Below, one piece after another: positions 3,322 through 63,090 of a stretch of 64,000 nucleotides of DNA (positions within the stretch are counted from its first letter, which is position 1; every line of letters starts with the position of its first letter). Origin of the DNA: a virus. Where the stretch lies: the IMG/VR virus record IMGVR_UViG_3300030106_006238, positions 5,736 to 69,735 of that record; one strand, 5' to 3'. The position numbers and the translations under genes were made by a program. The notes beneath the pieces are model-generated. The model searched no databases. It worked only from the letters and a program-made list of their open reading frames with translations, and was not told where the DNA came from.

Positions 3322-3336
3322 TACAAGCTCCTAAGT

Positions 3337-3477
3337 CTATTTCTTTTTTCGTGTTGAGGTTTTTTTCGAACCAAGACCTTTCGCTACTTTTTTTACGGCT
3401 TTCGATTGCCGCGCATGCATCTTCGAGGCTTTCTTCAGCTCTTTACTAATCTTCGAAAGTTTTTTCTGTACAGGCAA
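3337..3477 (-). CDS. 46-aa Lys-rich basic mini-protein (not in ORF track)
   Basis: TTG start after AGGGG; MPVQKKLSKISKELKKASKMHARQSKAVKKVAKGLGSKKTSTRKKK fills the operon gap. Confidence 0.65.
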   Translation of the reverse strand: MPVQKKLSKISKELKKASKMHARQSKAVKKVAKGLGSKKTSTRKKK

Positions 3478-48454: not shown

Positions 48455-49442
48455 TCACTGCCTTACCAAGAACTTCAGATACTTGTGGACATACAGCATT
48501 ACCTACTTGCCTGTATAAACTCTTCTTTGTCTTACCTTGAAATGGATGATTATCTGGAAAGCCCTGAAGCTTTGCGCATTCTCTCCATGTCAATCGTCTA
48601 AGCTTAGACAATGAATCTAATGATAGTTCATCATCTGGCTCTGCAACAAACGGTCCTGCATTACCAATCTGTACAGCAGCTACTGTAGTAGATGGTTCAT
48701 CACTAATGTTCCTATAAGTTCTCTTCTCTCTTTCTTCTGATGTTCTTGGATTCGTACCACCACCAAGAAACTGACCAGAACCTAATGCATCACTAATAGT
48801 GTTCCATGGTTTCAATCGTGAACTAAACATTGTTCCTTGTAGTGTAGAACTCAATGAACCATGTGTAGCTTCTGGCCATCTAATCTGTTGAGCACCAGCA
48901 ACTAAGAAGACACGACGCCTATGCTGTGGCACTCCATAATCAGAAGCATTCATCATGATGTGTCCTACCCAATCAAACCTCTTCTGAAACTCTGGAACAA
49001 TCCAATCTTCCCAGTAGCAACCTGGACATTTATTAGCATCGCCAGAACAATCAGCAGAATGATACGTCAACCCTGGTACGTTCTCACAGATGACATAGCG
49101 TGGACCTATGCCTCTTTCTATAAAGTGGTCAATGATGTTGAGAGTCCATGGCCAACCGTTCCTCTCGTCTAATGCTCCGAGTCTACTACCCGCAGTAGAG
49201 AATGCCTGACATGGTGGTGATGCCCAAAGCAAATCAACACGCTCTATATCTTTATACAAAGACAAGTCTCTTACATCTCCGCATGTACCTGGAAAGCCAG
49301 CAGCAACTAAAGTCTCCGCTGCATCAGCATCCCATTCAACACACAGCTTGTGATCAAAGCCTGCTCTTCTCAATCCAACAGAAGCACCACCTGCTCCTGC
49401 GAATAGATCGACACTAACAAAGTCCTTCAAGTGTCCTCCCAA
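48441..49442 (-). CDS. DNA (cytosine-5) methyltransferase
   Basis: DLFAGAGG (I), SPPCQAFS (IV), ENV (VI), QHRRRVF (VIII), RRLTWRECAKLQGFP (IX), YRQVGNAV (X). Confidence 0.93.
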   Translation of the reverse strand: MGGHLKDFVSVDLFAGAGGASVGLRRAGFDHKLCVEWDADAAETLVAAGFPGTCGDVRDLSLYKDIERVDLLWASPPCQAFSTAGSRLGALDERNGWPWTLNIIDHFIERGIGPRYVICENVPGLTYHSADCSGDANKCPGCYWEDWIVPEFQKRFDWVGHIMMNASDYGVPQHRRRVFLVAGAQQIRWPEATHGSLSSTLQGTMFSSRLKPWNTISDALGSGQFLGGGTNPRTSEEREKRTYRNISDEPSTTVAAVQIGNAGPFVAEPDDELSLDSLSKLRRLTWRECAKLQGFPDNHPFQGKTKKSLYRQVGNAVCPQVSEVLGKAVIDAM

Positions 49443-49503
49443 TGTGGTGTGTCTACTACCTTATCAATACGATGCTTTGTTGCCAAGAAGCTCGCAGCTC
49501 GTG

Positions 49504-49640
49504 TGGGGGTTACTCGCTGCATGGGGGGTTGTGGGGGTATCCCCCTTCGTAAGTGATAGTGTGGGGGTTGACGTGTCAAGGCATAGGCCCGAAAGCTCAT
49601 TAGGGGGGGGTGTGGGGGGTGTGGGGGGTGACAAGTCAAG
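49504..49640 (+). other. G-run cluster at the transcription divergence point
   Basis: G4, G6, G5, G5, then G8-TGT-G6-TGT-G6 (49603-49628). Confidence 0.7.
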
Positions 49641-49696
49641 AGACCCTATAGAACGGGGATCAAAGGTATAGCTAAGAGAAGATTTTGGGGTTCAAA

Positions 49697-49768
49697 TGTC
49701 AAGGAAATGTCAAGAGGTGTGTATTTTATGGTTTCAACGTTGACAACACGGGGGGCACGGGTGAAGAT
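49697..49768 (+). promoter_or_regulatory. early promoter P1 with upstream TGTCAAGGAAATGTCAAG box
   Basis: Box at 49697-49714; TTGACA(49740)-N17-GAAGAT; hairpin TCATCGG/CCGATGA at the start site. Confidence 0.65.
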
Positions 49769-49808
49769 GGATCATCGGAATCAACCGATGACCAAACGGA
49801 GCAACACA

Positions 49809-50426
49809 ATGCAAACCACACCAAACACCATCGCCCTCCCTACCAACCTCGAGCAAGCCTTCTCGCTGACCAGAGGCGGCCAGTTCTGCTTCCTCGCCGA
49901 GCACGAGAACAAGGACGGATTCAAGTGCGCCAGCCGCCTTTACCAGACCGGCTTCAGCTACAAGGCTCTTTTGCAAGAGGCCCTCGCCGACTTGGCCAAC
50001 TTGACCGCGAACCAGGTGATGGCTCAGTGCCGACACTGCGATACTCAGGCCCTCGCTCAGACTGCTATCGACCAACAGAAGGCATCCTGGGAGCGCTCGC
50101 TGGACAAGATCGCTAAAGGCACCCTCGAGTCTAACTACACCGAGGCGACTCCTGGCGTGCTCGTCAACGCGAACAATCCCGGCAGGCTCTACGTTCGTGG
50201 CCTCCTGGTGCGGGAGCAAGTCATCTGGCGCAAGGATCGCCCAGCGACCAAACACCGTAGCCCGCTGACCCCTACCAAGGCATGGATCAAGAATCAGTCT
50301 CGCATCAGCGACTACAAAAACTTCAGCCTCACCCCTGAGTCTAACTTCAAACACTTGGCGCTGGGTGGTCGTATCATCACCCCCGCCGATATCACCCGAT
50401 ACCTGGAGGATGTGTTGGGGGCGTAA
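49809..50426 (+). CDS. early hypothetical protein (205 aa)
   Basis: ACGGAGCAACACAATG leader fixes the start at MQTTPN. Confidence 0.8.
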   Translation: MQTTPNTIALPTNLEQAFSLTRGGQFCFLAEHENKDGFKCASRLYQTGFSYKALLQEALADLANLTANQVMAQCRHCDTQALAQTAIDQQKASWERSLDKIAKGTLESNYTEATPGVLVNANNPGRLYVRGLLVREQVIWRKDRPATKHRSPLTPTKAWIKNQSRISDYKNFSLTPESNFKHLALGGRIITPADITRYLEDVLGA

Positions 50427-50540
50427 GCCCCTGGGGGTGGGGGCCTGGTAACCTCCACCCCCTCCGTCCGAGGCTGTACCGCCTCGCTGATGAGACTCAT
50501 GGAGAGTCGAAACGGAAACTCCAAACGGAAACACAACACA

Positions 50541-50759
50541 ATGCAACCACATATCAAACAACTGATCTCAGAAGGTAAAGTACAACAGAGCAAACAGCTC
50601 TGCGCAGAGGAAGGATGCCAAGAACCTCTCTACGAGTTCACCGTCCCGATGTCTGAACCTCTCGTAATCAACGCAACACGGAGCCACCCTTTCGGCTACA
50701 TCTGCGACAAGTGCGACAATAAGCGAACCCAAAAAAGATTCTTCGCTATTACTCGATAA
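50541..50759 (+). CDS. small early protein with Cys pairs
   Basis: ACGGAAACACAACACAATG leader; CAEEGC..CDKC. Confidence 0.65.
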   Translation: MQPHIKQLISEGKVQQSKQLCAEEGCQEPLYEFTVPMSEPLVINATRSHPFGYICDKCDNKRTQKRFFAITR

Positions 50760-50805
50760 CAACACCGCCCCCCTTCGGGGGGGCACTTACACGGAGCACA
50801 ACACC

Positions 50806-51204
50806 ATGCACACAAGAAAAGAATACATGTCCGGCGACTGCACACACCAACAGTTCTATGAGCAGATGGTGACCGATGAAATCAAGGAAGGGGTTCGAAA
50901 GAGTATCGGCCTGGGCCGCATCATGCACTCAACGTGCGAACACTTCAACGATATACCTCTTAGCTTCTGGGATACCTTGGGCTGGAATCTAAGCGGTGCG
51001 ATTGACCCTCAAATCAAAGCGGCATCTGACCACCCATCCCTTGCCGGTAGGGTGTGTGTGGTGAAGGCAGCAGCAAAAATGCTGAAGCGGGAAGAAGAGG
51101 ATTTGACACCTTACGAGGTTCTCAAACGCATGAGACGGATGCATGCGATAGCTGCGGTTGATCGTTCGAATGCTTGGCTACGGGAAAAAGAAGGGGGTGA
51201 GTAA
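50806..51204 (+). CDS. early hypothetical protein
   Basis: Hairpin plus ACGGAGCACAACACCATG leader. Confidence 0.8.
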   Translation: MHTRKEYMSGDCTHQQFYEQMVTDEIKEGVRKSIGLGRIMHSTCEHFNDIPLSFWDTLGWNLSGAIDPQIKAASDHPSLAGRVCVVKAAAKMLKREEEDLTPYEVLKRMRRMHAIAAVDRSNAWLREKEGGE

Positions 51205-51281
51205 TGGATCCTCAGTTCTGGATTGAATGGCTCTTCTTGGTCAGCCTACTGTTCGCCGGATGGTGGGTGCTACCAAACTAA
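51204..51281 (+). CDS. 25-aa transmembrane peptide (not in ORF track)
   Basis: TAATG coupling; MDPQFWIEWLFLVSLLFAGWWVLPN; followed by a terminator. Confidence 0.5.
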   Translation: MDPQFWIEWLFLVSLLFAGWWVLPN

Positions 51282-51288
51282 AACAGAG

Positions 51289-51315
51289 GCCCTGAGCTCA
51301 GCTCGGGGCTTTCTT
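51289..51315 (+). terminator. intrinsic terminator before repeat cluster A
   Basis: GCCCTGAGC-TCA-GCTCGGGGC-TTTCTT. Confidence 0.75.
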
Positions 51316-51343
51316 GCGTCTGGGGCAGCTCAACCTATCACTT

Positions 51344-51368
51344 GTCAGAAAACGGTCCAAGTCGCGCC
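51344..51368 (+). repeat. 25-bp element, cluster A (1 copy)
   Basis: GTCAGAAAACGGTCCAAGTCGCGCC. Confidence 0.85.
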
Positions 51369-51439
51369 AGCTCAAAAAAACAAAACTTTTTTGTCCGCCT
51401 AAATCATGCGAGCTCGTCTTGTATTGTAGGAGAACAACA

Positions 51440-51670
51440 ATGAGTAAGTTTGAAGAGAGAGAAGACGAAAACCGCGACCTAGCAAAAAGCTTTATTGGCC
51501 TATTCGCTAAGAAGTTGAGTGAAGAGCTAATCGAGATGCGTGATGCTGGTGTCGATGCTGGAGAAGAGCATGTGCAAGAGATGATTGGTCTCCTGCATGG
51601 ACTCAACGTCATTGCAATAGAGCAAGAGCTTGGTGAAGCAATGAAGAAAAGCATGGAGGCAATTACATGA
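51440..51670 (+). CDS. small acidic early protein
   Basis: AGGAGAACAACAATG leader; MSKFEERE. Confidence 0.75.
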   Translation: MSKFEEREDENRDLAKSFIGLFAKKLSEELIEMRDAGVDAGEEHVQEMIGLLHGLNVIAIEQELGEAMKKSMEAIT

Positions 51671-51686
51671 ACCCCCCTCCGTAACC

Positions 51687-51767
51687 GTCAGAAGACGTAC
51701 CAGGTCGCACCATCGTTAGGGGACGTACCAGGTCGCACCATCGCTAAAAGACAAAAGACTTCGCACG
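51687..51767 (+). repeat. 25-bp element, cluster B (2 copies plus 1 degenerate, period 28)
   Basis: Units start at 51687, 51715 and 51743 (degenerate). Confidence 0.9.
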
Positions 51768-51775
51768 GGTCGAGT

Positions 51776-51837
51776 TGTCAAGGAAATGTCAAGGGTGTGT
51801 TTTAGGTGTTGCCAACTCCGATACCACGTGGCATATT
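51776..51837 (+). promoter_or_regulatory. early promoter with TGTCAAGGAAATGTCAAG box
   Basis: Box at 51776-51793; TTGCCA(51809)-N17-CATATT with extended TG. Confidence 0.7.
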
Positions 51838-51879
51838 GTGAGAGTAGCAAGGACGCTACAACAACACGGAGCAAAAACA

Positions 51880-52119
51880 ATGAGTCAAAAACCACAACGC
51901 CCAATCAACGTAATCGCAAAGGAAATCGTCGCTGATTGGAAAGTCGTAAACTATGCCGCCGTTCCATATCTGGAAGCAATGTTTTCACTCGATAGCATTG
52001 ACGACAACTTCCACTATGACTCCGGCAAGTCTGTAGTCCGCTACTTCCTTGCCAATGCGCAAGGGTGGCGAGGCGAGAAAGCACGAAGCATCAAAGCTGA
52101 ACTCAAGAGCATGATGTAA
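51880..52119 (+). CDS. early hypothetical protein (79 aa)
   Basis: ACGGAGCAAAAACAATG leader; MSQKPQRP..YAAVPYL.AM..YFLANA.GWRGE. Confidence 0.8.
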   Translation: MSQKPQRPINVIAKEIVADWKVVNYAAVPYLEAMFSLDSIDDNFHYDSGKSVVRYFLANAQGWRGEKARSIKAELKSMM

Positions 52120-52166
52120 ACCTCAACGGGGGGCGCAAGCCCCCCACCACACCACGGAGAAAAACA

Positions 52167-52478
52167 ATGACATTCGAAACACACAATGAGACCACAGTAC
52201 TTAGCGGCGGAACATGCTTGCAAGGCTACATCACGATTGACTTTGATAAACTGGTAGCTGTATTCGGAGAGCCTTGCGAAGGCGATCAATACAAAGTCGA
52301 TTGGGAATGGGAAATCGAGTTTGATGACGGTACGGTTGCAACTGTCTACAACTGGAAGAACGGACCCAGCTATTGTGGAGAGCAAGGTTTGAACCAATAT
52401 CAGATCAAAGAATGGCACGTTGGAGGCCGTTCCCGCACTGCAGTCAATCTTGTAGAGAACGCACTAAACATCGCATAA
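52167..52478 (+). CDS. early hypothetical protein
   Basis: GTCLQGYI..LVAVFGEP..KVDWEW..ATVYNWK..WHVGG; hairpin plus GGAG leader. Confidence 0.85.
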   Translation: MTFETHNETTVLSGGTCLQGYITIDFDKLVAVFGEPCEGDQYKVDWEWEIEFDDGTVATVYNWKNGPSYCGEQGLNQYQIKEWHVGGRSRTAVNLVENALNIA

Positions 52479-52536
52479 CCGTGGTGGGGTGGCGGGTAGC
52501 CCGCAAGGGTCCGCCACCCCTATTGGAGCAAGGAAA

Positions 52537-52650
52537 ATGGAAGAGCAAGAATGGTTAGCAGAGGTCTGCAGGAAATTTAGCGAGCAAGACTTAGCATTCA
52601 CTTTATGGCATCGCGTGTTTGTGTCGTATCAAACCCCAGCGATAGCTTAG
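52537..52650 (+). CDS. 37-aa hypothetical peptide
   Basis: Hairpin plus GGAGCAAGGAAAATG leader. Confidence 0.4.
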   Translation: MEEQEWLAEVCRKFSEQDLAFTLWHRVFVSYQTPAIA

Positions 52651-52764
52651 AAAGCATGCGCTATTGGATGTGCTTCTAGTGCAGGAAGTAAATGATCTTC
52701 TCCATTGTAGGGTCGCGCCCATGAATGGCACGAAGAACAGCTAAGAAAATCACCAATAGTGGCG

Positions 52765-52801
52765 GCCCGATCATCGTGCACAGATGATCGGGTTTTCTTT
52801 T
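52765..52801 (+). terminator. intrinsic terminator before cluster C
   Basis: GCCCGATCATC/GATGATCGGGT followed by TTTCTTTT. Confidence 0.8.
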
Positions 52802-52820
52802 GAGCTGCAGTACTATCACT

Positions 52821-52901
52821 GTTTGGGGACGTACCAGGTCGCGCCGTCGTTAGGGGACGGTCCAAGTCGCACCGTCGTTGGGGGACGTACCAAGTCGCAC
52901 C
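52821..52901 (+). repeat. 25-bp element, cluster C (3 copies, period 28)
   Basis: Units start at 52821, 52849 and 52877. Confidence 0.92.
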
Positions 52902-52941
52902 AGCTCAACAAATCACCAGCTCCTTTTTTCTGGTGCCAAGG

Positions 52942-52970
52942 TTGACAACGGGGGTGAGAAATGCGACATT
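52942..52970 (+). promoter_or_regulatory. sigma70-like early promoter
   Basis: TTGACA-N17-GACATT with extended TG. Confidence 0.6.
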
Positions 52971-53015
52971 GGGGGTGGGAGAGGACGGTCTTCTCTCAAT
53001 CACCACGGAGCACCA

Positions 53016-53291
53016 ATGAGTAGTCAAAACACAATCATTTCAAACCCAGAGTTCTACACTCCACTTTCTGAGTTGCGCCAGTACTCCGACAAGTACTTAG
53101 CAGAGGCCATCAAATGGGAGCCACTCTACAAAGGCTGGACCGTATACGGAGACGCCACATTGTACGAATGCCACATCCAAGGCGACGAGAACACCATTGT
53201 AATGGTCATTGGCGGTAAGGCTTATGACACAGGGCATTGGGAAATCTCAGATCTCCGAGAGCACGAACCAATCCAAATCAACTTCTTTTAG
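53016..53291 (+). CDS. early hypothetical protein
   Basis: CACCACGGAGCACCAATG leader; MSSQNTII. Confidence 0.75.
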   Translation: MSSQNTIISNPEFYTPLSELRQYSDKYLAEAIKWEPLYKGWTVYGDATLYECHIQGDENTIVMVIGGKAYDTGHWEISDLREHEPIQINFF

Positions 53292-53344
53292 AACTACAAA
53301 CCAACCAGGGGGGCGCAAGCCCCCAACACCACGGAGCACAAAAA

Positions 53345-53608
53345 ATGAAATGGTCTTATCAAAGTCAAAGCCTTCACTACACGTCGATTCACTCTTCGGA
53401 CCCGGATCCCGCAAAATGCATTTGTAAGGGTAGCGGTTGGTGGCTTTCCAACTATGACACCTGGGAGCAGTGCAGCTACACCGCTCATCGCAAGGGTAAC
53501 GAACGTCATCCAGAAGACGTAGCATACGAAGAGTCCATGAATGAATGGGCGGCTGAATGGGAAGCTGAGAAAGCAATGGAAGCCGAACAAAACAAAGGAG
53601 GTGAATAA
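53345..53608 (+). CDS. early protein with CxC.G.G..C..H motif
   Basis: Hairpin plus ACGGAGCACAAAAAATG leader; CICKGSGW..WEQC. Confidence 0.75.
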   Translation: MKWSYQSQSLHYTSIHSSDPDPAKCICKGSGWWLSNYDTWEQCSYTAHRKGNERHPEDVAYEESMNEWAAEWEAEKAMEAEQNKGGE

Positions 53609-53862
53609 TGGAAACCATGCAAGCGCTAGTAGTGAGCGTTGTAGACGCGATTGGAAACGATCCTAAACCAGACTGGAAAGATTCTTTGATTGATGCATGC
53701 GATGCTGTAGAAGCGGAGTTTGATGAGATGAAAGAAGCACTAAAAAAGCAGAAAGCCTGCACAGAAAGCACTGAAACAATGTTCGAAGCTTTCGATGAGG
53801 AAACAGGGGAGACCTGGGCATTGTGTTGGCATCTCGTCAAAGAGAAAGGGGGTGATGGATGA
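53608..53862 (+). CDS. small acidic early protein
   Basis: GGAGG RBS, TAATG coupling. Confidence 0.7.
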   Translation: METMQALVVSVVDAIGNDPKPDWKDSLIDACDAVEAEFDEMKEALKKQKACTESTETMFEAFDEETGETWALCWHLVKEKGGDG

Positions 53863-53884
53863 GCAGCTCGCTTTCGATTCAACA

Positions 53885-53987
53885 GCAGCGCGACGGTCCA
53901 AGTCGCACCGTTGAAAGCCGTACCAAGTCGCACCGTTAGGGGCCGTACCAAGTCGCACCACAGTTAGGGGACGGTCCAAGTCGCATC
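53885..53987 (+). repeat. 25-bp element, cluster D (4 copies; periods 25, 25, 28)
   Basis: Units start at 53885, 53910, 53935 and 53963. Confidence 0.92.
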
Positions 53988-53990
53988 GAA

Positions 53991-54050
53991 TGTCAAGGAA
54001 ATGTCAAGGGCAAAATAAGTGTTGCCAAGACTGATAACAGCAGCTAAGAT
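53991..54050 (+). promoter_or_regulatory. early promoter with TGTCAAGGAAATGTCAAG box
   Basis: Box at 53991-54008; TTGCCA(54022)-N17-TAAGAT. Confidence 0.75.
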
Positions 54051-54078
54051 AAAGACACCACAACAAAGGACACCACAA

Positions 54079-54819
54079 ATGAGAAGAATTGTTTTATACG
54101 AAGGACCATCAGCCATTGACGGCGCACCAATTGTCGCATTGACAGCAGACATTGATCGCAAGTCTAAAAACGTGAAAACTGCAGACGAAGTCCAGACTTA
54201 TATCCTGCGCCAGGATGTCAAGCCTAACGCGGCGATCAAGTCAGGAGAGGACACGTCAATTTGTGGCGGATGCGCACACCGATCAGAGGCATCGGGCGGA
54301 TCGGGCGCATGCTATGTGATCGCCTTTCGTGGCCCGCTCGCAGTGTGGTCCGCTTACAAGCGAGGCAATGTGATCAGGCCATCGGATGCTTTGATCTCCG
54401 CTATGGTAGCAGACCGGACGATCCGTCTTGGATCCTATGGCAATCCGTCTGCTATCCCTGCGGATCGTTGGGAGGTCTTGCTTGCACAGTCGAAGGGCCA
54501 CACAGGATATGATCACAGGTGGCGCGATATTGACCCTGCAGTGTGGGCACACCTTGTTATGGCAAGCGTTGACACGCCGGAAGAAGCACACGAAGCGATC
54601 GCGATGGGATACCGGACGTTTCGAACCCGTTTACCTGACGAAGTATTGATGCCACACGAGCGAGTGTGTCCTGCCTCTCATGAGTTTGGGCAAGTGTTGA
54701 CTTGCGAGCAGTGCAGGGGATGTGACGGCACACGACGCGGACAAAAACGAAAGTCCTACGCCATCATAGCCCATGGCCCTATGGCAAAAAGATACGAAAA
54801 GTGGAGGGCAAGCCTGTAA
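54079..54819 (+). CDS. Cys-rich phage protein, GP88-like (possible Fe-S / radical-SAM-like)
   Basis: N.KT..VQTYI..ICGGCAHR..ACYV..RLGSYGNP..HTGY.H.W..MASVD..CPA..TCEQCRGC. Confidence 0.7.
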   Translation: MRRIVLYEGPSAIDGAPIVALTADIDRKSKNVKTADEVQTYILRQDVKPNAAIKSGEDTSICGGCAHRSEASGGSGACYVIAFRGPLAVWSAYKRGNVIRPSDALISAMVADRTIRLGSYGNPSAIPADRWEVLLAQSKGHTGYDHRWRDIDPAVWAHLVMASVDTPEEAHEAIAMGYRTFRTRLPDEVLMPHERVCPASHEFGQVLTCEQCRGCDGTRRGQKRKSYAIIAHGPMAKRYEKWRASL

Positions 54820-54825
54820 TCGGGT

Positions 54826-54854
54826 TTGACACCACACAGAACACAAGCTAAGAT
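54826..54854 (+). promoter_or_regulatory. sigma70-like early promoter
   Basis: TTGACA-N17-TAAGAT, then the GTAGG-ATGAA-CCTAC leader hairpin. Confidence 0.8.
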
Positions 54855-54893
54855 TCAAAAGTAGGATGAACCTACACACCACAAGGAGCAACA

Positions 54894-55184
54894 ATGTCAT
54901 TCGACCCACACAAATCAGCATACGTTTTCTATTCGGACCCTGGTCACGAATGGTTAGCAGTGCCTTTCAGCGCATTGAAAGACTTGGACATTGAGCAGGA
55001 GATCTCATCCTACTCATACACCAACAAGCACAAAACCGTCGCATATCTGGAGGGGGACTGCGATGCAGCAGTGTTCCTGAAAGCCTTCCAAGAGAAGTAT
55101 GGCTTTCGTCCTAAGTGGATTGACAGTAGCACTAACGGTCAATCACACGTCCGCCGCATGCCACACTACATTCAGCCACAATAA
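54894..55184 (+). CDS. early hypothetical protein (DPGH.WL.V..ISSYSY..YLE.DCD motif)
   Basis: AAGGAG RBS; motif familiar from phage and mobile-element small proteins. Confidence 0.8.
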   Translation: MSFDPHKSAYVFYSDPGHEWLAVPFSALKDLDIEQEISSYSYTNKHKTVAYLEGDCDAAVFLKAFQEKYGFRPKWIDSSTNGQSHVRRMPHYIQPQ

Positions 55185-55193
55185 GGAGAGATC

Positions 55194-55598
55194 ATGGGAT
55201 ACTGTATCTTTCAAAGAGATGGAAAGTTCAAAATTGCCTCCGCCGACAAGGCGGGGGCGCTATCGGCCCTCAAAAAACTATCCAAAGGCGATTATGCATG
55301 GGTAGATCACTTGGGATTGGAGCAAGCAGACACACTGGAGCAAGCGATTAGGGCATGGCGATGGCATGCCACGACGGATGAACAGGGAAACATTGACGAT
55401 CTGTATTTCAACGGAGAAAAATACGGAGACGAAGAGGTTTTGCTCAAAGTGCTCGCACTCTACGCCGAAAGTGGCTCGTGGGTAGAAATGCAAGGCGAAG
55501 ACGGCGAACGATGGATGTGGAAGTTCGAAAGGAGACAGCTTGTAACCTACAACGCAAAGATCACCTTTGATGAACCGTCATACAGCTACGAAACATAA
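55194..55598 (+). CDS. early hypothetical protein
   Basis: AAGGAG RBS; MGY..GEK..GSWVEMQGEDGERW. Confidence 0.8.
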   Translation: MGYCIFQRDGKFKIASADKAGALSALKKLSKGDYAWVDHLGLEQADTLEQAIRAWRWHATTDEQGNIDDLYFNGEKYGDEEVLLKVLALYAESGSWVEMQGEDGERWMWKFERRQLVTYNAKITFDEPSYSYET

Positions 55599-55611
55599 AA
55601 GGCATGCTCCG

Positions 55612-55644
55612 AGGGGTCAGGATTTCGGTCCTGGCCCCTTTTTT
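55612..55644 (+). terminator. intrinsic terminator before cluster E
   Basis: AGGGGTCAGGAT-TTCG-GTCCTGGCCCCT followed by T5. Confidence 0.85.
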
Positions 55645-55692
55645 CGGCGCGAAATCCGGCCCTCAGCTCAAGATGTGAAGTAAGCAGTGATA

Positions 55693-55834
55693 GTTTACAT
55701 TCGGACGCGGTTGCGCCAGCTCCGTTAGGGGTCGGGCCAGGTCGCATCACCATAGTTGGGGGGCGGGCCAGGTCGCATCATGTTCCAATAACATGCATTA
55801 TGTTCAATGGTTGGGGGGCGGTCCAAGTCGCACC
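55693..55834 (+). repeat. 25-bp element, cluster E (1 degenerate plus 3 copies; periods 31, 31, 55)
   Basis: Units start at 55693 (degenerate), 55724, 55755 and 55810. Confidence 0.9.
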
Positions 55835-55878
55835 AAACGATGGACGGGAAACTATTTTGGCTAATACTGTTATCTTCC

Positions 55879-55930
55879 TTGACTACTCAAATGAATCAAT
55901 GTTATGGATATGGGGTAGGATGAACCTACA
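55879..55930 (+). promoter_or_regulatory. putative early promoter with leader hairpin
   Basis: TTGACT at 55879 with a weak -10; GTAGGATGAACCTACA (55915-55930) identical to 54861-54876. Confidence 0.55.
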
Positions 55931-55951
55931 AACAACAAGTGAGACACCACA

Positions 55952-56248
55952 ATGGAATTCGAAAGATTCAACCACTGCCCAGGCAACATGACCCGATACG
56001 ATTTGCTGTTCGCGAAGAACGGGAACGGAGGGTTCATCCTTGTCTGGCTGAACCGAAGCGGGATTAGCGGCCCAGCGATCAACTACGACGGTGGAGGCAT
56101 GGTTACTCCTGGCTACCTCGAGGCGAAGCTTGATCATCCTGAAGGCTTGAGGGGAGACATGAATGCACTGTGTGCCTTCCTGGCCTCGAAGGGCGTTCAC
56201 GCAGAAGTGACCGGAGGCTTCAAGGCTGACGGTACATACCGACGATAA
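55952..56248 (+). CDS. early hypothetical protein
   Basis: ACACCACAATG leader. Confidence 0.7.
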   Translation: MEFERFNHCPGNMTRYDLLFAKNGNGGFILVWLNRSGISGPAINYDGGGMVTPGYLEAKLDHPEGLRGDMNALCAFLASKGVHAEVTGGFKADGTYRR

Positions 56249-56296
56249 ACTCTAACGGGGGGCGCAAGTCCCCCATCACCACATAAGGACACCACA

Positions 56297-57091
56297 ATGG
56301 AAAACAGACGATACTTTATCTTCAAGGACGGAGAACTCTTTGGTTTCTCCGTAGACATCGAGGGGGCACACAAGATTCTCCTCGGCCAACTAACCAAGTC
56401 GAGCGGTAACTTCGCAATCATGTACATGAGCGAAGAAGACTACAGAAGAATCGGTGACTTCGATTACAGATGCGCCGAGTCGATTCGACTGACACACGAC
56501 AGCGAAGTACTGTCAACAACCCAACCACTCTGGAGTGAAGAGAAGATCCAGAAGTGGTACGGCAAACAACCTGGGACAGCTAAGTTCAAAGCAAAGCCGG
56601 TCTGGTTTTCAATCGATGATCTCTTCGAGGTGGAAGGATACTCGATTGGACAGACTTGGAATGGATGGGCGGTGCCTTACTTCACCAAGAGCCAAGTAGA
56701 GAAGGTCAAAGAGGCGTTGACTAAGTCCGGCGTTACTCCTTGGGTACGATGGAAGACAGAGGAAGACGGGACCATCGTTGTTCAAAGCACATCTCCCTAT
56801 GATGATGAGCCCGACGACATCTGGTCGCCCCAAACAATCGATGGCGTTGACGAACCTGTCTGGTGCATCGGTGGCTTTGCCTGGGTTTGGGAGGCATTCG
56901 AACACAAGCGGTGTGAATCCTGCGGAGTCGATGTGCCAGAGGATGAGCACTGCGGCAACGACAATCCCGATGGAAGCGCCGAGTACTTGTGCTCCGACTG
57001 CTTCACTCCCGAAGAGGAAGAGGAGTCCATCATGGACATCGTTGTCAACATGAAGCGACTGGCCGACGAAATCATGGGAGGTGGACTATGA
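56297..57091 (+). CDS. early protein with WNGW..P.F motif and C-terminal zinc finger
   Basis: Hairpin plus AAGGACACCACAATG leader; CESC..LCSDC. Confidence 0.8.
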   Translation: MENRRYFIFKDGELFGFSVDIEGAHKILLGQLTKSSGNFAIMYMSEEDYRRIGDFDYRCAESIRLTHDSEVLSTTQPLWSEEKIQKWYGKQPGTAKFKAKPVWFSIDDLFEVEGYSIGQTWNGWAVPYFTKSQVEKVKEALTKSGVTPWVRWKTEEDGTIVVQSTSPYDDEPDDIWSPQTIDGVDEPVWCIGGFAWVWEAFEHKRCESCGVDVPEDEHCGNDNPDGSAEYLCSDCFTPEEEEESIMDIVVNMKRLADEIMGGGL

Positions 57092-57315
57092 TTTCGAAGG
57101 AATGCTTTCGACTCGTAGACGAACTCTGGGCCCAGGTCAACGAAGCGCATCAGAAAAGTGACGAGGGCGAAATATCCTCCGAACTTGCCGCACAGAGATG
57201 TAGAAAAGCCTGCAGCGAGTTCGTGCATTCGCACATGATGATGATGGATACCCCTCGTTTTTTCAACGGGCGCTGGTACTTTCCGGCCCGGTGGAACCTT
57301 GAGGAAAACGAATGA
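57088..57315 (+). CDS. small hypothetical protein
   Basis: GGAGG RBS, ATGA coupling; MISKECFRL. Confidence 0.65.
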   Translation: MISKECFRLVDELWAQVNEAHQKSDEGEISSELAAQRCRKACSEFVHSHMMMMDTPRFFNGRWYFPARWNLEENE

Positions 57316-57336
57316 ACAAACAGGAGCTGAGCTCCG

Positions 57337-57375
57337 CCTGTCGGTGTGATGTGGTGTCCGCCGACAGGTTTGTTT
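57337..57375 (+). terminator. intrinsic terminator before cluster F
   Basis: CCTGTCGGTG/CGCCGACAGG followed by TTTGTTT. Confidence 0.7.
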
Positions 57376-57584
57376 GGGGTCGAACCAAGTCGCACCGATC
57401 TTCTGGTAGAAAGTCGGGCCAAGTCGCACCGGCCAAGTTCGGGGTCGGGCGAAGTCGCACCGATGCCATATGGAAACAGCTCAAACCAACCAGCTCAAGT
57501 TGGGGGTCGAACCAAGTCGCATCGATGTGTGGTGTCAAGTAGAGAACAACAAGGGGTTACTTGCTGAGCGGGCCGGGTCGCACC
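57372..57584 (+). repeat. 25-bp element, cluster F (5 copies; periods 34, 31, 62, 61)
   Basis: Units start at 57372, 57406, 57437, 57499 and 57560. Confidence 0.9.
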
Positions 57585-57885
57585 GCCGGATGGGCTAACC
57601 GGACTCTCGACTGCCCAGACTACCTGTTATCAAGCCGAGAACACGCTGCCTATACCGCTGTTTGGCCTTGCTTTCGGGTTCAAGGCGCTTTTTTTGGGCG
57701 ATTTTGGCCCGTAAACCATTGAAATAGCTCGTTTTTTTGCTAAAACGGTGCCATGCGGCATGAATCGAGGATGCAGGCACGCCTTCGAGGGCCGCCGGAG
57801 CACTATTTCCACACATCCCACTGACCCTGGCTACCCATCCATCCTTTGCCTGTGGGACAATATGTAGGTATTGGGGTTCTTTCAA

Positions 57886-58350
57886 ATGCAACATTATCAT
57901 CTCCGAATCCGTCGTTTATCAGCGCCTCCTTCATCTTACCGTCGTTTGAGCGAGTCTGAGTTGGAAGATTTGGTATCTGATTGTGAAGCTGCACTGACTG
58001 GAGATCATTGGCGTGATGAGATTCAGGCATGTTCGATTCGCATATGGAGATTGTTCCGCACATTAGACATTGAGTACGGTGGTAGTGGAAAGTTCGCGAG
58101 GTTTGCACGAGCGATAGACGAGTCACCTACAGCGATTGCTGCATACTTTCTTGGTAAGGACAAGCCTACTCGGTACAACACAGATGTTCTTCACAGGTGG
58201 TGTTGTGGCATCAGCTCACTATGGCTTGAGGAGTTTGGTGGACCTCAGGTTGATCTACATTTGCGTGCTGACGGAGTTGTTCGTCCCTTCTTAGTTCACA
58301 TGAGTCCGTTAGGTGTTATCAAGAACACGGGCGAGCCACAGCTAAAGTAG
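57886..58350 (+). CDS. putative XRE/Cro-like HTH DNA-binding protein
   Basis: FARFARAIDESPTAIAAYFLGKDKP matches the LA..G.S..AI..Y..GK..P HTH pattern; start uncertain. Confidence 0.55.
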   Translation: MQHYHLRIRRLSAPPSSYRRLSESELEDLVSDCEAALTGDHWRDEIQACSIRIWRLFRTLDIEYGGSGKFARFARAIDESPTAIAAYFLGKDKPTRYNTDVLHRWCCGISSLWLEEFGGPQVDLHLRADGVVRPFLVHMSPLGVIKNTGEPQLK

Positions 58351-58636
58351 TGATATTAGTAAGGAATCCAGACAAGAAACCCTTGCTGCCCATATCTGCC
58401 CCACCTTTTCTTAACCTTTTATTAGCCCTCTCTATTGCCTGACCACTACTCCTCTATACCATTTACTTTTTTTTATAGGAAAAGGGGATATAAGGGAGGC
58501 AATGGTAAATAACTGAAGCATTCTAACTATTTACCGCTGACCATGTTGTAGCCACGACTGACTATAAATGGGGCGGCATTGTATAAAAACCCCCCAATAA
58601 CCCTGGAATATGCCTGACCTTTGGCCCAAACATGAC

Positions 58637-58665
58637 TTGACCGCCACATCCCCATACCTTATGAC
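58637..58665 (+). promoter_or_regulatory. putative promoter
   Basis: TTGACC-N17-TATGAC upstream of the MTase. Confidence 0.4.
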
Positions 58666-58726
58666 TTAGTACACCATTGGGTGACACTTAGTCCCCAAGA
58701 GGTTACCAAACACCACAGAGGACACA

Positions 58727-59146
58727 ATGAGCGTACATTTTAGTAGTAAGACCGATCAGTGGTCTACACCCCAGGATTTGTTCGATAGCTATGACAAACT
58801 GTGGGGATTTGAACTGGATGTTTGTGCTCTACCAAGCAATGCCAAATGCCGGAAATACTTCACACCGGAAGACGATGGGCTTGCTCAACAGTGGTCTGGT
58901 GTGTGCTGGATGAATCCACCGTATGGAAGAGAGATCAAGAAGTGGATGAAGAAAGCCTACGAAGAATCCCAACGTGGATGCACAGTGGTTTGCCTGGTTC
59001 CTTCTAGAACAGACACCGCTTGGTGGCATGACTACGCAATGAAAGGACAAGTGATCTTTCTAAGGGGAAGGCTCAAGTTCGGTGACGCTAAGAACTCTGC
59101 ACCCTTCCCGTCAGCAATTGTGATCTTCAAAGGAGACAACAAGTGA
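58727..59146 (+). CDS. phage DNA N6-adenine methyltransferase (Dam family)
   Basis: W.TPQDLFD..F.LDVCA..DGL.Q.W..WMNPPY..LVPSRTDT.WWH..GRLKF..APFPS. Confidence 0.92.
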   Translation: MSVHFSSKTDQWSTPQDLFDSYDKLWGFELDVCALPSNAKCRKYFTPEDDGLAQQWSGVCWMNPPYGREIKKWMKKAYEESQRGCTVVCLVPSRTDTAWWHDYAMKGQVIFLRGRLKFGDAKNSAPFPSAIVIFKGDNK

Positions 59147-59889
59147 ACGAACAAACCTCAACCATGATCAAGAAAGCAATCGGAAGCCATGCTGTCTTCT
59201 TAGCAGTGCGGCACGACCCTGAACTCGTAGGGAGATTTAAGAAGACTGAAGCTGGAACCCTCTTCATGGATGGAGACAAGATCAATAAAGCCAAACTGGC
59301 TTCTGTCCTCATCTACCTGACGGGCAAGTGGGGCATGCGGCCTACCGAGTTTGAGTTGTACACAGGGATTCTGGGTGCCTCTCAAGAAGTAAAGGTCGAA
59401 CGCAAGAAGAACTCACTGCCTGAAAGAGAAGTGCAGTGGGCCAAAGAAAAGCTGAACAGGGATCACGTTGCCATGTCTACAACTGACATCATCGATCAAC
59501 TGCCCGCAGGAATGCTGATGCAAGGACGGAGCGGTGAGATGAGACTGGCTCGTATCCTCGATGAACTGGGCTGGGAGCGAAAGAGAACCATGATCCACAA
59601 CATCAGAGCCTATCGATGGTATCCACCAGAAGACTGGGTGTTTCCAGATGTAGAGGCTCCTCAAGCAAAGAACCTTGAGAACGTCGTGGATTACTTTGAC
59701 CACATCGAAGACGAAAGCATTGTGCTCCCTGAAATGGAAGTAAGGCAAACAGATGGTCGATGGACACATCCAGTAGCTGAAGACGATGAGTCGGAACACA
59801 AGGTTGAGCTGGACCCATGGGGAGATCCCGTGGTCGTCATTAAAGAAGCAAAAGAAATCAAACACTTCTACGAAGAGGATGAGGAATGA
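59143..59889 (+). CDS. VapE-like protein lacking the central ATPase domain
   Basis: N-terminal RHDPELVGR..IYL..KWG and C-terminal STTDII..RSGEMRLARILDELGWERKR..RW resemble VapE termini; no Walker A. Confidence 0.6.
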   Translation: MNEQTSTMIKKAIGSHAVFLAVRHDPELVGRFKKTEAGTLFMDGDKINKAKLASVLIYLTGKWGMRPTEFELYTGILGASQEVKVERKKNSLPEREVQWAKEKLNRDHVAMSTTDIIDQLPAGMLMQGRSGEMRLARILDELGWERKRTMIHNIRAYRWYPPEDWVFPDVEAPQAKNLENVVDYFDHIEDESIVLPEMEVRQTDGRWTHPVAEDDESEHKVELDPWGDPVVVIKEAKEIKHFYEEDEE

Positions 59890-63001: not shown

Positions 63002-63074
63002 TGGGGTGTAGTTCAATTGGCAGAACGCCTGACTGTTAATCAGGAGGTTGCAGGTTCGAGTCCTGCTGCCCCAG
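63002..63074 (+). tRNA. tRNA-Asn (GTT)
   Basis: Acceptor TGGGGTG/TGCCCCA, D-arm GTTC/GAAC, anticodon arm CCTGA-CTGTTAA-TCAGG, T-arm GCAGG-TTCGAGT-CCTGC; followed by CCT, so no encoded CCA. Confidence 0.92.
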
Positions 63075-63090
63075 CCTCTTTGGAGAGACG

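Follow-up and report, generated by a model that had tools for sequence, protein, structure and literature searches.

The early region of this uncultured marine phage raises the question of what a short, polar and repeated DNA element does between genes. The genome of 69,735 bp (69.7 kb) contains 18 intact copies of a 25-bp motif and two decayed ones. We analysed a 64-kb stretch of it, hereafter the window, to which all positions refer. The first-pass annotation had reported about 20 polar copies in six intergenic clusters, all on the + strand and not noticed elsewhere in the window. A PWM of the 25-bp unit was scanned across the whole genome on both strands. The 18 units scored between 22.7 and 39.9, values that are high by construction since the PWM was made from the same 18 units. 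The scan is informative for what it returned elsewhere: the best score was 11.3 outside the units and 19.1 among 50 shuffles. When the window was searched with the core CCARGTCGCRYC at up to one mismatch, 19 matches were found where 1.6 were expected; 18 lie at 51357-57584, on the + strand throughout, and the 19th is isolated at position 6084 with one mismatch. All array units are intergenic, on the + strand and confined to 51344-57584. They occupy six of the 11 + strand gaps of at least 60 bp in the window, and the strand-switch, middle and late regions are without them. The reported distribution was thus confirmed, as were the 18 unit starts listed without reservation. The two starts given in brackets, 51743 and 55693, failed by PWM and stood as decayed copies aligned in gapless repeat families (Table 1). 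Copy number had also been said to rise with distance from the strand switch. The strict counts for clusters A-F are 1, 2, 3, 4, 3 and 5, so that the rise holds overall (Spearman 0.90, p 0.015, n = 6) but is not monotonic. The 12-mers of the unit had no match in the searched literature, in agreement with the annotation, which had not recognised the element as a described one.

The surroundings of the clusters were examined for terminators and promoters. Folding gave a hairpin with a U-run (z -2.1 to -4.1) before clusters A, C, E and F, exactly where terminators had been annotated. None comparable was found by folding upstream of cluster B (z -0.9) or D (z +0.5), which begin 16-22 nt past a stop codon. 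The first unit of cluster F overlaps the U-run of its terminator. Of the four sigma70-like promoters claimed downstream of B, C, D and E, those after B and D were returned by the scanner; those after C and E fall under its threshold and were recognised by eye only. The region's best sigma70 match, at 54826, has neither a terminator before it nor an array, and an array is likewise absent from the first + strand promoter of the divergent region. The distance from array to promoter is 34-69 bp here and 17, 43 and ~60 bp in relatives, and that from array to terminator ranges from 0 to ~110 bp. Such variable distances argue against a precise promoter-proximal operator. Since the genes of the region all share the + strand, polarity of the units toward transcription is inseparable from polarity toward replication or DNA entry, or from inheritance by duplication.

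Table 1 Arrays, flanking signals and candidate binder genes, in window coordinates.
Feature	Position	Strand	Remarks
Hairpin before cluster A	51288..51316	+	intrinsic-terminator-like, with U-run; -20.6 kcal/mol, z -2.1
Cluster A	51344..51368	+	1 unit; PWM 28.3 plus core match; 3' of hairpin 51288-51316
Cluster B	51687..51739	+	2 units (51687, 51715); PWM 32.8 and 38.8; upstream hairpin absent
Cluster B, decayed third copy	~51743-51767	+	PWM <8; aligned in gapless repeat family D2
Promoter after cluster B	51809..51837	+	sigma70-like, TTGCCA-17-CATATT; scanner; 69 bp past last unit
Terminator before cluster C	52764..52803	+	intrinsic; -20.6 kcal/mol, z -3.8
Cluster C	52821..52901	+	3 units (52821, 52849, 52877); 28-bp period; 5 in relative L004
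Promoter after cluster C	52942..52970	+	sigma70-like, TTGACA-17-GACATT, weak -10; by eye; 40 bp past last unit
Cluster D	53885..53987	+	4 units (53885, 53910, 53935, 53963); periods 25, 25, 28
Promoter after cluster D	54022..54050	+	sigma70-like, TTGCCA-17-TAAGAT; scanner; 34 bp past last unit
Terminator before cluster E	55613..55645	+	intrinsic; -26.8 kcal/mol, z -3.9
Cluster E, decayed copy	~55693-55717	+	PWM <8; aligned in gapless repeat family D4
Cluster E	55724..55834	+	3 units (55724, 55755, 55810); periods 31, 55
Promoter after cluster E	55879..55907	+	sigma70-like, TTGACT-17-TTATGG; by eye; 44 bp past last unit
Terminator before cluster F	57336..57377	+	intrinsic; -29.6 kcal/mol, z -4.1
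Cluster F	57372..57584	+	5 units (57372, 57406, 57437, 57499, 57560); periods 34, 31, 62, 61
Candidate binder, 154-aa protein	57886..58350	+	first gene after cluster F; lead only
Candidate binder, 248-aa protein	59143..59889	+	winged-helix-like topology at residues 88-174; acidic tail; lead only

The unit itself consists of two head-to-tail 10-bp half-sites spaced one helical turn apart. Self-similarity within units was maximal at lag 10 (0.507 versus 0.256 +/- 0.079 for column-permuted units), a level reached by 6 of 2000 permutations, and the remaining lags gave 0.15-0.34. Among 43 distinct units from the window and its relatives, G1, T2 and C10 (40/43 each) and G11 (43/43) are near-invariant, all at positions that the search pattern left free; positions 4, 9, 12 and 13 vary freely. 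The spacing of 25, 28, 31 or 34 bp is irregular, so the units look independent rather than parts of a single phased filament. A protein that binds DNA head-to-tail is what the internal two-half-site structure most directly suggests. No Rfam family was returned for the units at E up to 1, and folding of either strand gave z values of -1.4 to +0.9 with no structured-RNA signal. These results support the view, already taken in the annotation, that the units behave as DNA-level sites of uniform orientation and not as structured RNA. The annotation had overlooked the two half-sites; its description of how the 5' half drifts from clusters A-D to E-F holds.

The relatives, all of them assembled contigs, keep the motif with the same polarity, a point that had been singled out for checking: each of two close relatives carries 15 of 15 cores on one strand. 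The diverged relatives L205 and L155 retain CCARGTCGCRYC as well as the order of terminator, array and sigma70 promoter, in a setting where the single aligned neighbouring protein is 38% identical and other intergenic DNA is past alignment. The hairpin and first unit of cluster F are kept in L205 (84.5% over 71 nt). Between the window and L003, 5 of 216 core positions differ, all at degenerate positions 17, 23 or 24, and 18 of 234 differ in the 5' half, 14 of them at positions 4, 9, 12 or 13. The 5' half turns over faster than the core, and its divergence of 7.7% compares with 2.1% for other intergenic DNA. Arrays also win and shed whole units between relatives, and copy number varies between near-identical strains; cluster D of L004, for instance, has 5 units, with a 28-bp unit inserted in run X13. 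The early region is mosaic among close relatives, and its reliably placed cassette junctions fall at GNRA-hairpin/RBS-leader repeats or within genes, outside the arrays. One joint, 52521 to 52853 (short side 23), touches cluster C and does not pass the reliability rule of the tool. The half-site structure, the gain and loss of whole units and the restriction of core changes to degenerate positions are new.

We tentatively propose that the units are duplex sites for a head-to-tail DNA-binding protein and separate early transcription units as polar boundary or shut-off elements. We infer the protein binding, the identity of the binder and its effect on transcription as follows. Each unit would be a double-stranded binding site of ~20-25 bp, read as a GTTRG lead-in, a weak half-site GGnCGnnCCA and then a strong half-site RGTCGCAYC. 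Its occupant would be one sequence-specific protein, which either dimerises head-to-tail in tandem or reads the DNA with two domains of the same chain. The phage would be transcribed from host sigma70-type promoters; no phage RNA polymerase is recognisable in the genome. With units placed in series at what would be six borders of successive co-directional early transcription units, the bound protein may stop transcription coming from the upstream unit or strengthen its stop, and/or silence the early promoter that lies 34-69 bp further downstream. An effect multiplied by several independent units in a row would account for the tandem copies, the irregular spacing and the copy-number turnover. 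Such an action resembles those of L5 stoperators, 186 Apl and D29 Gp36. In the available part of PMC9283540, asymmetric intergenic sites of one orientation block elongation in only one orientation; the protein on them is a monomer whose two DNA-binding domains occupy successive major grooves. Excerpts of two further reports describe direct repeats one turn apart that are bound head-to-tail with repression of early promoters (PMC7498355), and, in a lytic phage, repression of downstream genes by a protein bound to GC-rich direct repeats (PMC12266134).

Two genes downstream of the arrays are candidates for encoding the binder. The 248-aa protein gene lies in the replication module, 1.5 kb past cluster F. 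Its model has pLDDT 70-83 across residues 88-174, and the VIA Z of at most 6.3 is middling by the tool's grading. Foldseek gave no match at E 0.001 or better, and the weak viral-structure matches (E 0.003-0.15) include VirE/COG5545, 'replisome organizer' and primase proteins. In the 154-aa protein, an HTH_3 match at 58102-58170 stays below threshold (E 0.013; 12.4 bits, cut-off 23); no more than 4 homologues were found, and the fold model is unusable (pLDDT 39.9). HTH_17 and MerR_1 domains were absent from a six-frame search at E up to 10, and none of the small early ORFs gave anything convincing against Pfam and PHROGs, which weighs against the proposed reading.

The alternative that survives best, although we consider it unlikely, is that the units are iterons, sites for a replication initiator that mark one or more origins or form copy-control/handcuffing clusters. 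Tandem same-orientation repeats of ~25 bp, in several clusters of varying copy number, would fit. The phage encodes a primase, a DnaB-like helicase and an SSB but no recognised DNA polymerase or replication initiator, and so needs an origin and an origin binder; the weakly winged-helix-like 248-aa protein, with its replication-related structure matches, could be that binder. By analogy only, unrelated contigs carry 10-bp-period arrays of the same 8-mer in or near DUF6291 genes, and in L259 such an array lies directly upstream of a DnaB-like helicase gene. However, likeness to L255 and L259-L264 is at background (the real 8-mer in 8 contigs versus 5 for a permuted control), and DUF6291 is absent from the genome at E up to 10. 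Six clusters across 6 kb of early ORFans, each set between a terminator or stop codon and a promoter, are not origin-like, and the spacing is irregular where two helical turns are usual. The window has 2 DnaA-box-like sites in all where 6.6 would be expected, with none near the arrays.

Of the functions listed in the annotation, a centromere-like array, ratchet or nicking sites and decoys are retained as rival readings. Rather improbable is a polar signal for an enzyme that tracks or cuts one strand, such as a Chi-like sequence disarming a host RecBCD/AddAB-type nuclease, a strand-specific nick site or a pause/ratchet site for genome entry. Probabilistic reading by a translocating enzyme would suit the single-strand polarity, irregular tandem spacing and copy turnover, and the part of the genome that carries the arrays is the one expected to come into play earliest in infection. 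Known Chi sequences are G-rich, and so is the core when read as its reverse complement. Half-sites one turn apart within a conserved unit of 16-25 bp nevertheless fit a duplex better than a single-strand signal of 5-8 nt. The phage also has its own RecE/RecT, and serial terminators along the early region argue against transcription-driven entry.

That the arrays are decoys, titrating a host regulator or defence protein or a phage regulator to set a threshold or delay with no local action, is less probable again. The sites are many and high-affinity-looking with a strongly conserved core, no phage-encoded binder was recognised in the Pfam, PHROGs and HTH_17/MerR_1 searches, and copy number differences among near-identical strains are what dosage tuning predicts. 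Against this, the steady placement at unit boundaries in diverged relatives suggests local action. Likewise, among the matches listed, no prokaryote genome locus held the element in multiple copies, although this leaves room for a host operator.

We give still less weight to a recombination substrate or selfish minisatellite kept by unequal crossover, serving at most as homology for cassette shuffling. Gain and loss of whole units and the mosaic region would agree with it, and the excess divergence of the 5' half over other intergenic DNA indicates unit exchange. Yet the core is unchanged in relatives as diverged as L205 and L155, apart from degenerate positions it resists substitution, and the placement of the reliable junctions outside the arrays lends no support to the earlier suggestion of recombination handles.

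It is very improbable that the units are promoters read by an RNA polymerase or sigma factor specific to the phage. A non-palindromic, intergenic motif of ~25 bp co-oriented with the genes is what such promoters could look like, and the phage is reminiscent of N4-like phages in its genome size, its gene layout and the presence of a giant ORF; the 3,457-aa virion-size protein might be an injected polymerase (N4-like/crAss-like). This ORF, however, had no PHROG, Pfam or PDB-sequence match, a pattern search found neither T7-like nor double-psi-barrel catalytic motifs in it, and its weak atlas leads are to polyvalent-protein domains (scores at most 0.85). The units lack the N4-type hairpin, and phage polymerase promoters are not known to come in arrays of up to five at 25-34 bp, with a separate sigma70-type promoter after each array. 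Least probable of all is an RNA-level element acting as protein sponge, stabiliser or processing site in read-through transcripts, since, although clusters B and D without a preceding terminator are probably transcribed as 3' UTR, the Rfam and folding results were null, four of the six arrays lie past strong terminators and half-sites recurring every 10 bp are a feature of duplex DNA.

Several known systems invite comparison with the proposed boundary sites. Iterons of plasmid and phage origins, including lambda O/ori, are tandem same-orientation repeats of ~17-25 bp in several clusters of variable copy number, as here, and their binding proteins contain a single winged-helix domain or two; further examples are RK2 oriV and the P4 pair of ori and crr, and plasmid Rep iterons and SPP1 G38P boxes would be comparable under that reading. 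The units, by contrast, lie away from replication genes, lack DnaA boxes, and form six irregularly spaced clusters at transcription-unit boundaries. In T4-type phages, promoter-early stem-loops (PeSLs) are repeated regulatory DNA at the boundaries of small cassettes of early ORFans, within a hyperplastic region shuffled among relatives. A PeSL is the promoter and terminator themselves, whereas the unit is a separate repeated element between the two, with shuffling junctions elsewhere. The 21-nt intergenic repeats of T1-like phages such as TLS are alike in their ~18 copies, all along transcription, in a phage that has no RNA polymerase of its own. Those of TLS differ in being single, AT-rich, ~76 nt upstream of start codons and genome-wide, where the units are GC-rich, stand in tandem and keep to the early region. 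In the available part of that report the authors assign them no function (PMC11447400).

Closer in anatomy are the sites of lambda Xis, P2 Cox, 186 Apl, BldC and D29 Gp36, which in the accessible sections of PMC7498355 and PMC12266134 are direct-repeat half-sites one helical turn apart, as here. These head-to-tail winged-helix binders, lytic-phage Gp36 included, repress phage genes from GC-rich direct repeats, and their sites, like the units, adjoin early promoters. They show low sequence specificity and bind cooperatively to 3-7 contiguous phased sites, whereas each unit has two half-sites, phasing between units is absent, and Apl and Xis sites are far less specific than the near-invariant 12-bp core. 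HTH_17 and MerR_1 domains were also absent here from the six-frame search. The stoperators of mycobacteriophage cluster A (L5, TipsytheTRex), with similar sites in Rhodococcus cluster CA phages, as the available portions of PMC9283540 and PMC5721134 present them, are single 13-bp sites of temperate phages, bound by the immunity repressor in early and late operons. The units differ in sequence, in their length of 25 bp, in their tandem arrays of 1-5 in the early ORFan region only and in belonging to a phage without a recognised integrase or repressor, and they are known from sequence alone. Both elements are nevertheless asymmetric, numerous per genome, intergenic and of a single orientation relative to transcription, in phages where host RNA polymerase performs, or here would perform, all transcription. 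Two DNA-reading modules on successive major grooves, as described for stoperators, are what we propose for the units.

The virus record is a single contig of 69,735 bp, estimated by CheckV to be 97% complete, and the window covers its bases 5736-69735. Although classed as linear, the record has ends that overlap by about 100 bp, with the first 40 nt recurring at genome position 69636. A circular or terminally redundant assembly is therefore probable, with the replication module continuing across the contig ends. A minus-strand block of structural and lysis genes is followed by a plus-strand block that runs, in order, through about 17 small ORFans, a 154-aa protein, Dam, a 248-aa protein, an SF2 helicase, SSB and tRNA-Asn, the sole tRNA; across the contig ends, the block goes on with a primase, a DnaB-like helicase, RecE and RecT. 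RNA polymerase, DNA polymerase and integrase genes were not recognised in the genome. At the DNA level it resembles no isolated phage, and its terminase shares 25.7% identity with the best match. Marine metagenomes from eight named studies contain DNA of this phage or of variants.

Features of the phage genome and of related or compared contigs. Positions are those of the window unless a contig or the genome is named.
Feature	Position	Strand	Remarks
Overlapping contig ends	genome 1-100 and 69636-69735
Structural and lysis genes	1082-49442	-	Endolysin, 3,457-aa ORF, internal virion proteins, major head protein, large terminase, HNH endonuclease, DNA methyltransferase
3,457-aa ORF	9751-20124	-
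Divergent region	49443-49808		Start of the plus-strand block
G-run repeats	49501-49628	+	GTGTGGGGG(G)T, strand-switch region
TGTCAAGGAAATGTCAAG, copy 1	49697-49714		Promoter -35 at 49740 (+)
TGTCAAGGAAATGTCAAG, copy 2	51776-51793		Promoter -35 at 51809 (+)
TGTCAAGGAAATGTCAAG, copy 3	53991-54008		Promoter -35 at 54022 (+)
Cluster A, first unit	51344	+
Cluster B, first unit	51687	+
Cluster C, first unit	52821	+
Cluster D, first unit	53885	+
Cluster E, first unit	55724	+
Cluster F, first unit	57372	+
GNRA-tetraloop hairpin	52117-52150		GGGGGGC-GCAA-GCCCCCC
GNRA-tetraloop hairpin	53297-53330		GGGGGGC-GCAA-GCCCCCC
GNRA-tetraloop hairpin	56246-56279		GGGGGGC-GCAA-GCCCCCC
Cassette joins	53326/56277 and 56283/53007		Hairpin/leader
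Cassette join	57222/57303		Inside genes
Insertion in run X13	53862/53864		233 nt, after the stop codon of gene 53608-53862 and before cluster D
Diverged segment, runs X4 and X19	54568-55529		Genes 54894-55598
75-aa ORF	57088-57315
Conserved region after cluster F	57585-57885		Counterpart in L205 at 3130-3346
248-aa ORF	59143-59889
tRNA-Asn	63002-63076
GTCGCRYC array, L255	7805-7975	-	Terminator, array, then promoter/operator region
GTCGCRYC array, L259	4781-4808		Inside a DUF6291 gene
GTCGCRYC array, L262	1508-1784		Inside a DUF6291 gene
GTCGCRYC array, L260	8339-8376		DUF6291 gene 0.85 kb away

The conserved 12-bp core of the repeat unit, CCARGTCGCRYC, matched the window 19 times with at most one mismatch, against 1.6 matches expected, and 18 of these matches fall within 51357-57584, all on the plus strand. 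The first-pass annotation had described the 25-bp unit as always intergenic, always on the plus strand and not noticed elsewhere in the window. All 18 units indeed lie in intergenic DNA on that strand, and a scan of the whole genome with a position weight matrix (PWM) of the unit, on both strands, gave nothing above 11.3 outside the arrays, the best score in shuffled sequences being 19.1; as the matrix was built from the 18 units, their own high scores follow by construction. Two additional degenerate copies (51743 and 55693) were aligned as decayed units by the repeat families D2 and D4, yet both fail the PWM. The copy numbers of 1, 3, 3, 4, 4 and 5 in clusters A to F, which had included them, become 1, 2, 3, 4, 3 and 5 in a strict count.

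The units occupy six of the 11 plus-strand intergenic gaps of at least 60 bp in the window. As the first-pass annotation had it, terminators precede A, C, E and F, where a stable hairpin is followed by a U-run. No such structure stands before B and D, yet these two boundaries have arrays, which begin 16-22 nt past the stop codon. Promoters had been placed after B to E; those after B and D were flagged by a scanner, while those after C and E are sigma70-like by eye. The first plus-strand promoter, in the divergent region, has no array, and the best sigma70 match of the region (54826) has neither a preceding terminator nor an array. The arrays mark the boundaries of successive co-directional units and not promoters as such.

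Within the unit, self-similarity has a sharp maximum at a 10-bp lag (0.507, compared with 0.256 ± 0.079 for column-permuted units), 0.507 being reached by 6 of 2000 permutations. The unit can therefore be divided into GTTRG and two half-sites, GGnCGnnCCA (weak) and RGTCGCAYC (strong), which lie head to tail one helical turn apart. Among 43 distinct units from the window and its relatives, G1, T2, C10 and G11, which are not forced by the search pattern, are conserved in 40-43, and positions 4, 9, 12 and 13 vary freely. The invariance of positions 14-25 in these units is not independent evidence since the pattern partly fixes them. Some units of the diverged relative L205 lack the GTT-G-run lead-in yet retain CGnnCCARGTYGCRCC, so that the two half-sites are the minimal element. 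Units follow one another at 25, 28, 31 or 34 bp or, where one copy has apparently decayed, at 55-62 bp, with no helical phasing. As far as sequence can tell, the near-invariant 12-bp core argues for high binding specificity, in contrast to the cooperative, spreading and low-specificity binding typical of RDF/Xis/Cox/Apl/Gp36-type proteins. Separately, the window contains GTKKGGGG 25 times where 5.8 are expected, chiefly in the G-run cluster of the strand-switch region and in the units' 5' parts; the lead-in with its G-run may be an element separable from the rest.

Two IMG/VR contigs with 91-98% identity, L003 and L004, share all six clusters. In the whole record of each, 15 of 15 cores lie on one strand, and a reversed-pattern control gave 0 matches. 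The motif is thus neither missing nor randomly oriented in close relatives, the outcomes which the first-pass annotation had held would speak against it. Array length differs among these genomes: cluster C has three units in the window and five in L004, and cluster D has four and five, an extra 28-bp unit being also present in a contig from marine run X13. Population variants in marine runs further include the X13 insertion listed in the table and, in X4 and X19, a strongly diverged version of the genes of the listed segment, which has about 150 differences per 960 nt. When the window is aligned with L003, 5 of 216 core positions differ (2.3%), all of them at the degenerate positions 17, 23 or 24. 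In other intergenic DNA, 29 of 1411 positions differ (2.1%). In the 5' half, the count is 18 of 234 (7.7%; Fisher p 0.01 in comparison with the core), and positions 4, 9, 12 and 13 account for 14 of these differences. The excess in the 5' half is more in keeping with whole unit variants being exchanged than with point drift.

Two short metagenome contigs, L205 (3.3 kb) and L155 (1.2 kb), are true diverged relatives. Their proteins are about 34-56% identical to those of the window in the longer tblastx segments and 38% in one aligned protein, and their intergenic DNA is no longer alignable to that of the window except for the units and one terminator hairpin. In both, tandem clusters on one strand retain the core, and the 5' half is a different one, GTTTGGGCACG or GTGTGGGCACG. 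The order of elements is likewise kept: gene, hairpin with T-run, units, near-consensus sigma70 promoter (TTGACA-17-TACAAT, TTGACA-17-TATACT or TTGACA-17-TATGGT), leader, gene. Protein-anchored scans for more relatives returned the two close ones and one unrelated helicase locus of 20% identity (L012), and the unit pattern of the diverged lineage had no match in viral contigs. Two loci with unrelated coding repeats of 15-bp period (L163, L187) and eight with single chance matches (L002, L005, L006, L008, L009, L254, L256, L257) were rejected.

The identity of the unit was also sought outside these phages. In a scan of 185,579 species genomes for unit doublets, where recurrence would point to a host REP-type repeat or operator, the matches listed were single ones only, mostly in GC-rich genomes, and among 239 listed loci numbered L015 or higher, at least three PWM hits occurred solely in L155 and L205. 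Two 12-mers of the unit appear in no paper of the literature searched; matches to 10-mers were unrelated primers. Readings of the unit as a sigma54, ECF-sigma or Pho-box site were dropped by eye, as the spacings do not agree with the consensus sequences.

Other sequence elements were observed near the arrays. The three exact copies of TGTCAAGGAAATGTCAAG (0.1 expected) form a TGTCAAG direct repeat of 11-bp period and lie 13-26 bp upstream of plus-strand promoter -35 elements; the reverse complement of the -35 consensus reads TGTCAA. The spacing of this repeat resembles that of a Pho box, and it may be the site of a second regulator for a subset of early promoters. The 300 bp between cluster F and the 154-aa gene hold no convincing ORF and are conserved in L205 (tblastx 50% over 50 codons); with a weak hairpin and T-run at about 57665-57700 and promoter-like sites on the minus strand, this stretch could be a small RNA or regulatory region. 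AGCTCAA occurs six times in 51200-57700 against 1.7 expected if uniform (for example at 51369, 52902, 57478 and 57492), often adjoining the last unit of a cluster or within terminator stems, and the units of L205 are likewise flanked by GAGCTC/GAGCTG.

We examined the early genes for proteins that might bind the units. For the small early ORFs, Pfam and PHROGs yielded nothing except a sub-threshold HTH match in one of 75 aa (E 0.0019; 18.9 bits, the cut-off being 27). HTH_17 (PF12728) and MerR_1 (PF13411) had 0 matches at E ≤10 in six frames, though a highly diverged member is still possible. Pfam identified no clear HTH protein. The 154-aa ORF after cluster F shows a sub-threshold HTH_3 match (E 0.013); it has four homologues and an AlphaFold model that is unusable (pLDDT 39.9). 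The 248-aa ORF has six homologues and a model of moderate quality (pLDDT 70-83 over residues ~20-70 and 90-170). Contigs of roughly 71 kb encode a homologue of the 154-aa protein at 83% identity (P0004) and one of the 248-aa protein at 52% (P0009). Its residues 88-174 align with winged-helix domains of the PadR, MarR, Fur and RAP30 kind (VIA-align, Z 5.0-6.3, rated middling), and Foldseek found nothing at E ≤0.001, with best values of 0.05 in the PDB and 0.003 among weak viral matches in BFVD. The 154-aa and 248-aa proteins are leads only as candidate binders.

Taken together, the unit is a genuine and conserved cis-element that has so far not been described; its internal architecture is clear, and in the genome it consistently marks boundaries. 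Its function we infer. We consider it likely that a protein binds the units as duplex DNA, whatever their function. More tentatively, we propose that, with protein bound, they may serve in early transcription as polar boundary or shut-off elements. Independent sites would then act in series at each boundary, which the irregular spacing and the turnover in copy number fit. A fuller scenario, doubtful in its entirety, is that a virulent marine phage dependent on host polymerase splits its early region into separately controlled cassettes by tandem polar "boundary arrays", serial orientation-specific protein roadblocks after each unit; this would be a tandem stoperator system outside actinophages, with a new head-to-tail binder and array length tuned by unit gain and loss.

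To our knowledge, almost nothing is known of regulation in uncultured marine phages. Here, a conserved and easily recognised DNA signal stands at six early-unit boundaries of a phage that probably relies on host RNA polymerase throughout. Should the units prove to be polar insulators or shut-off sites, they would reveal how the expression of fast-evolving early, host-takeover genes is timed and separated, carry the stoperator idea beyond actinophages and provide synthetic biology with a compact, tunable and orientation-specific transcription block. They also offer a way to find the cognate protein among the ORFans and a means of locating the early region in viral contigs related to this one. 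With a core that stays fixed, a 5' half that can be exchanged and whole units gained or lost, the motif is a clean natural case of concerted evolution in binding-site arrays.

Among the other explanations, we regard iterons as unlikely. The units are tandem, same-orientation repeats as are iterons, which are 17-25 bp long. However, of the origin features that adjoin iterons, no DnaA-box site (TTWTNCACA) lies in the region, with 2 in the window against 6.6 expected, and whereas iterons adjoin or lie in an initiator gene, the arrays are among early ORFans, at least 1.5 kb from the replication module. The search for an initiator yielded the 248-aa protein, winged-helix-like at Z ≤6.3 with weak viral matches, and no DUF6291 (PF19808) at E ≤10 in the genome. 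This domain drew attention through eight unrelated viral contigs in which GTCGCRYC is repeated head to tail every 10 bp, in 3 to about 17 copies; in three of the eight, a DUF6291 gene lies over or near the array. In L259 this gene is directly upstream of a DnaB-like helicase gene, with an AT-rich stretch after the array, an arrangement similar to lambda O/ori. DUF6291 may be an origin-binding domain; the literature searched does not mention it. A permuted control 8-mer of the same period was found in five contigs, and given this result and the absence of DUF6291 from our genome, we rejected the same system in the eight contigs and keep them solely as an illustration of initiators using 10-bp-period repeats.

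A signal for a moving or nicking enzyme seems quite unlikely; in a bolder variant of the boundary-array scenario, the arrays would be polar signals for a moving enzyme, such as Chi-like anti-nuclease or entry-ratchet sites, concentrated in the first-acting DNA. That the units are decoys for a host defence or regulatory protein we hold to be improbable. Very improbable, in our estimate, is a functionless minisatellite or recombination substrate. The first-pass annotation had suggested recombination handles, but the cassette joins in relatives fall at GGGGGGCGCAAGCCCCCC hairpins, at ACGGAGCA leaders or inside genes, outside the arrays, and do not support this. The GNRA-tetraloop hairpins between cistrons lack U-runs, and each is followed by a common leader (CACCACGGAGCA...) ahead of the next start codon; cassette relocations join exactly there. 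Promoters for a phage polymerase are a most improbable reading. PHROGs, Pfam, PDB sequences, motif patterns and the atlas revealed no such enzyme, and folds of the DNA-equivalent RNA on both strands gave no signal (z -1.4 to +0.9) of an N4-type promoter hairpin of 5-7 bp. The unassigned 3,457-aa ORF, considered as a polymerase, has no PHROG, Pfam, PDB-sequence or motif-pattern match; its weak atlas leads (at most 0.85) are to "large polyvalent protein" domains (LPD39, MuF_C), and its product may be an injected multi-domain virion protein. An RNA element is hardly credible, since Rfam 15 gave 0 matches at E ≤1 (49000-59000, both strands) and the folding range just given holds for the units on either strand, which excludes a known RNA family or structured RNA.

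Returning to polar boundary or shut-off elements, we compared the units with systems of known mechanism. Like L5-type stoperators, they are asymmetric, intergenic and in a single orientation; unlike those, which are single sites dispersed over early and late operons, they are mostly tandem and confined to 51344-57584. Stoperators also have a cognate immunity repressor with an HTH and a stoperator domain, and here Pfam showed no clear HTH protein. The binders of the RDF/Xis/Cox/Apl/Gp36 group use direct repeats about one helical turn apart, a spacing that the units share with two half-sites only, and these systems encode a small excisionase- or MerR-like winged-helix protein, which the PF12728 and PF13411 searches did not find here. 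Membership of the stoperator, RDF or iteron class is not established; for each, at least one defining feature did not hold here. At stoperators, a two-domain monomer on asymmetric sites blocks elongation in a polar way (PMC9283540). Apl (PMC7498355) and D29 Gp36 (PMC12266134) bind direct repeats head to tail and repress early promoters. A set of intergenic repeats in one orientation, presented as unexplained, occurs in T1-like phages (PMC11447400). By analogy, the closest documented mechanisms for the units would be the polar blocks of stoperators and the promoter repression of Apl and Gp36.
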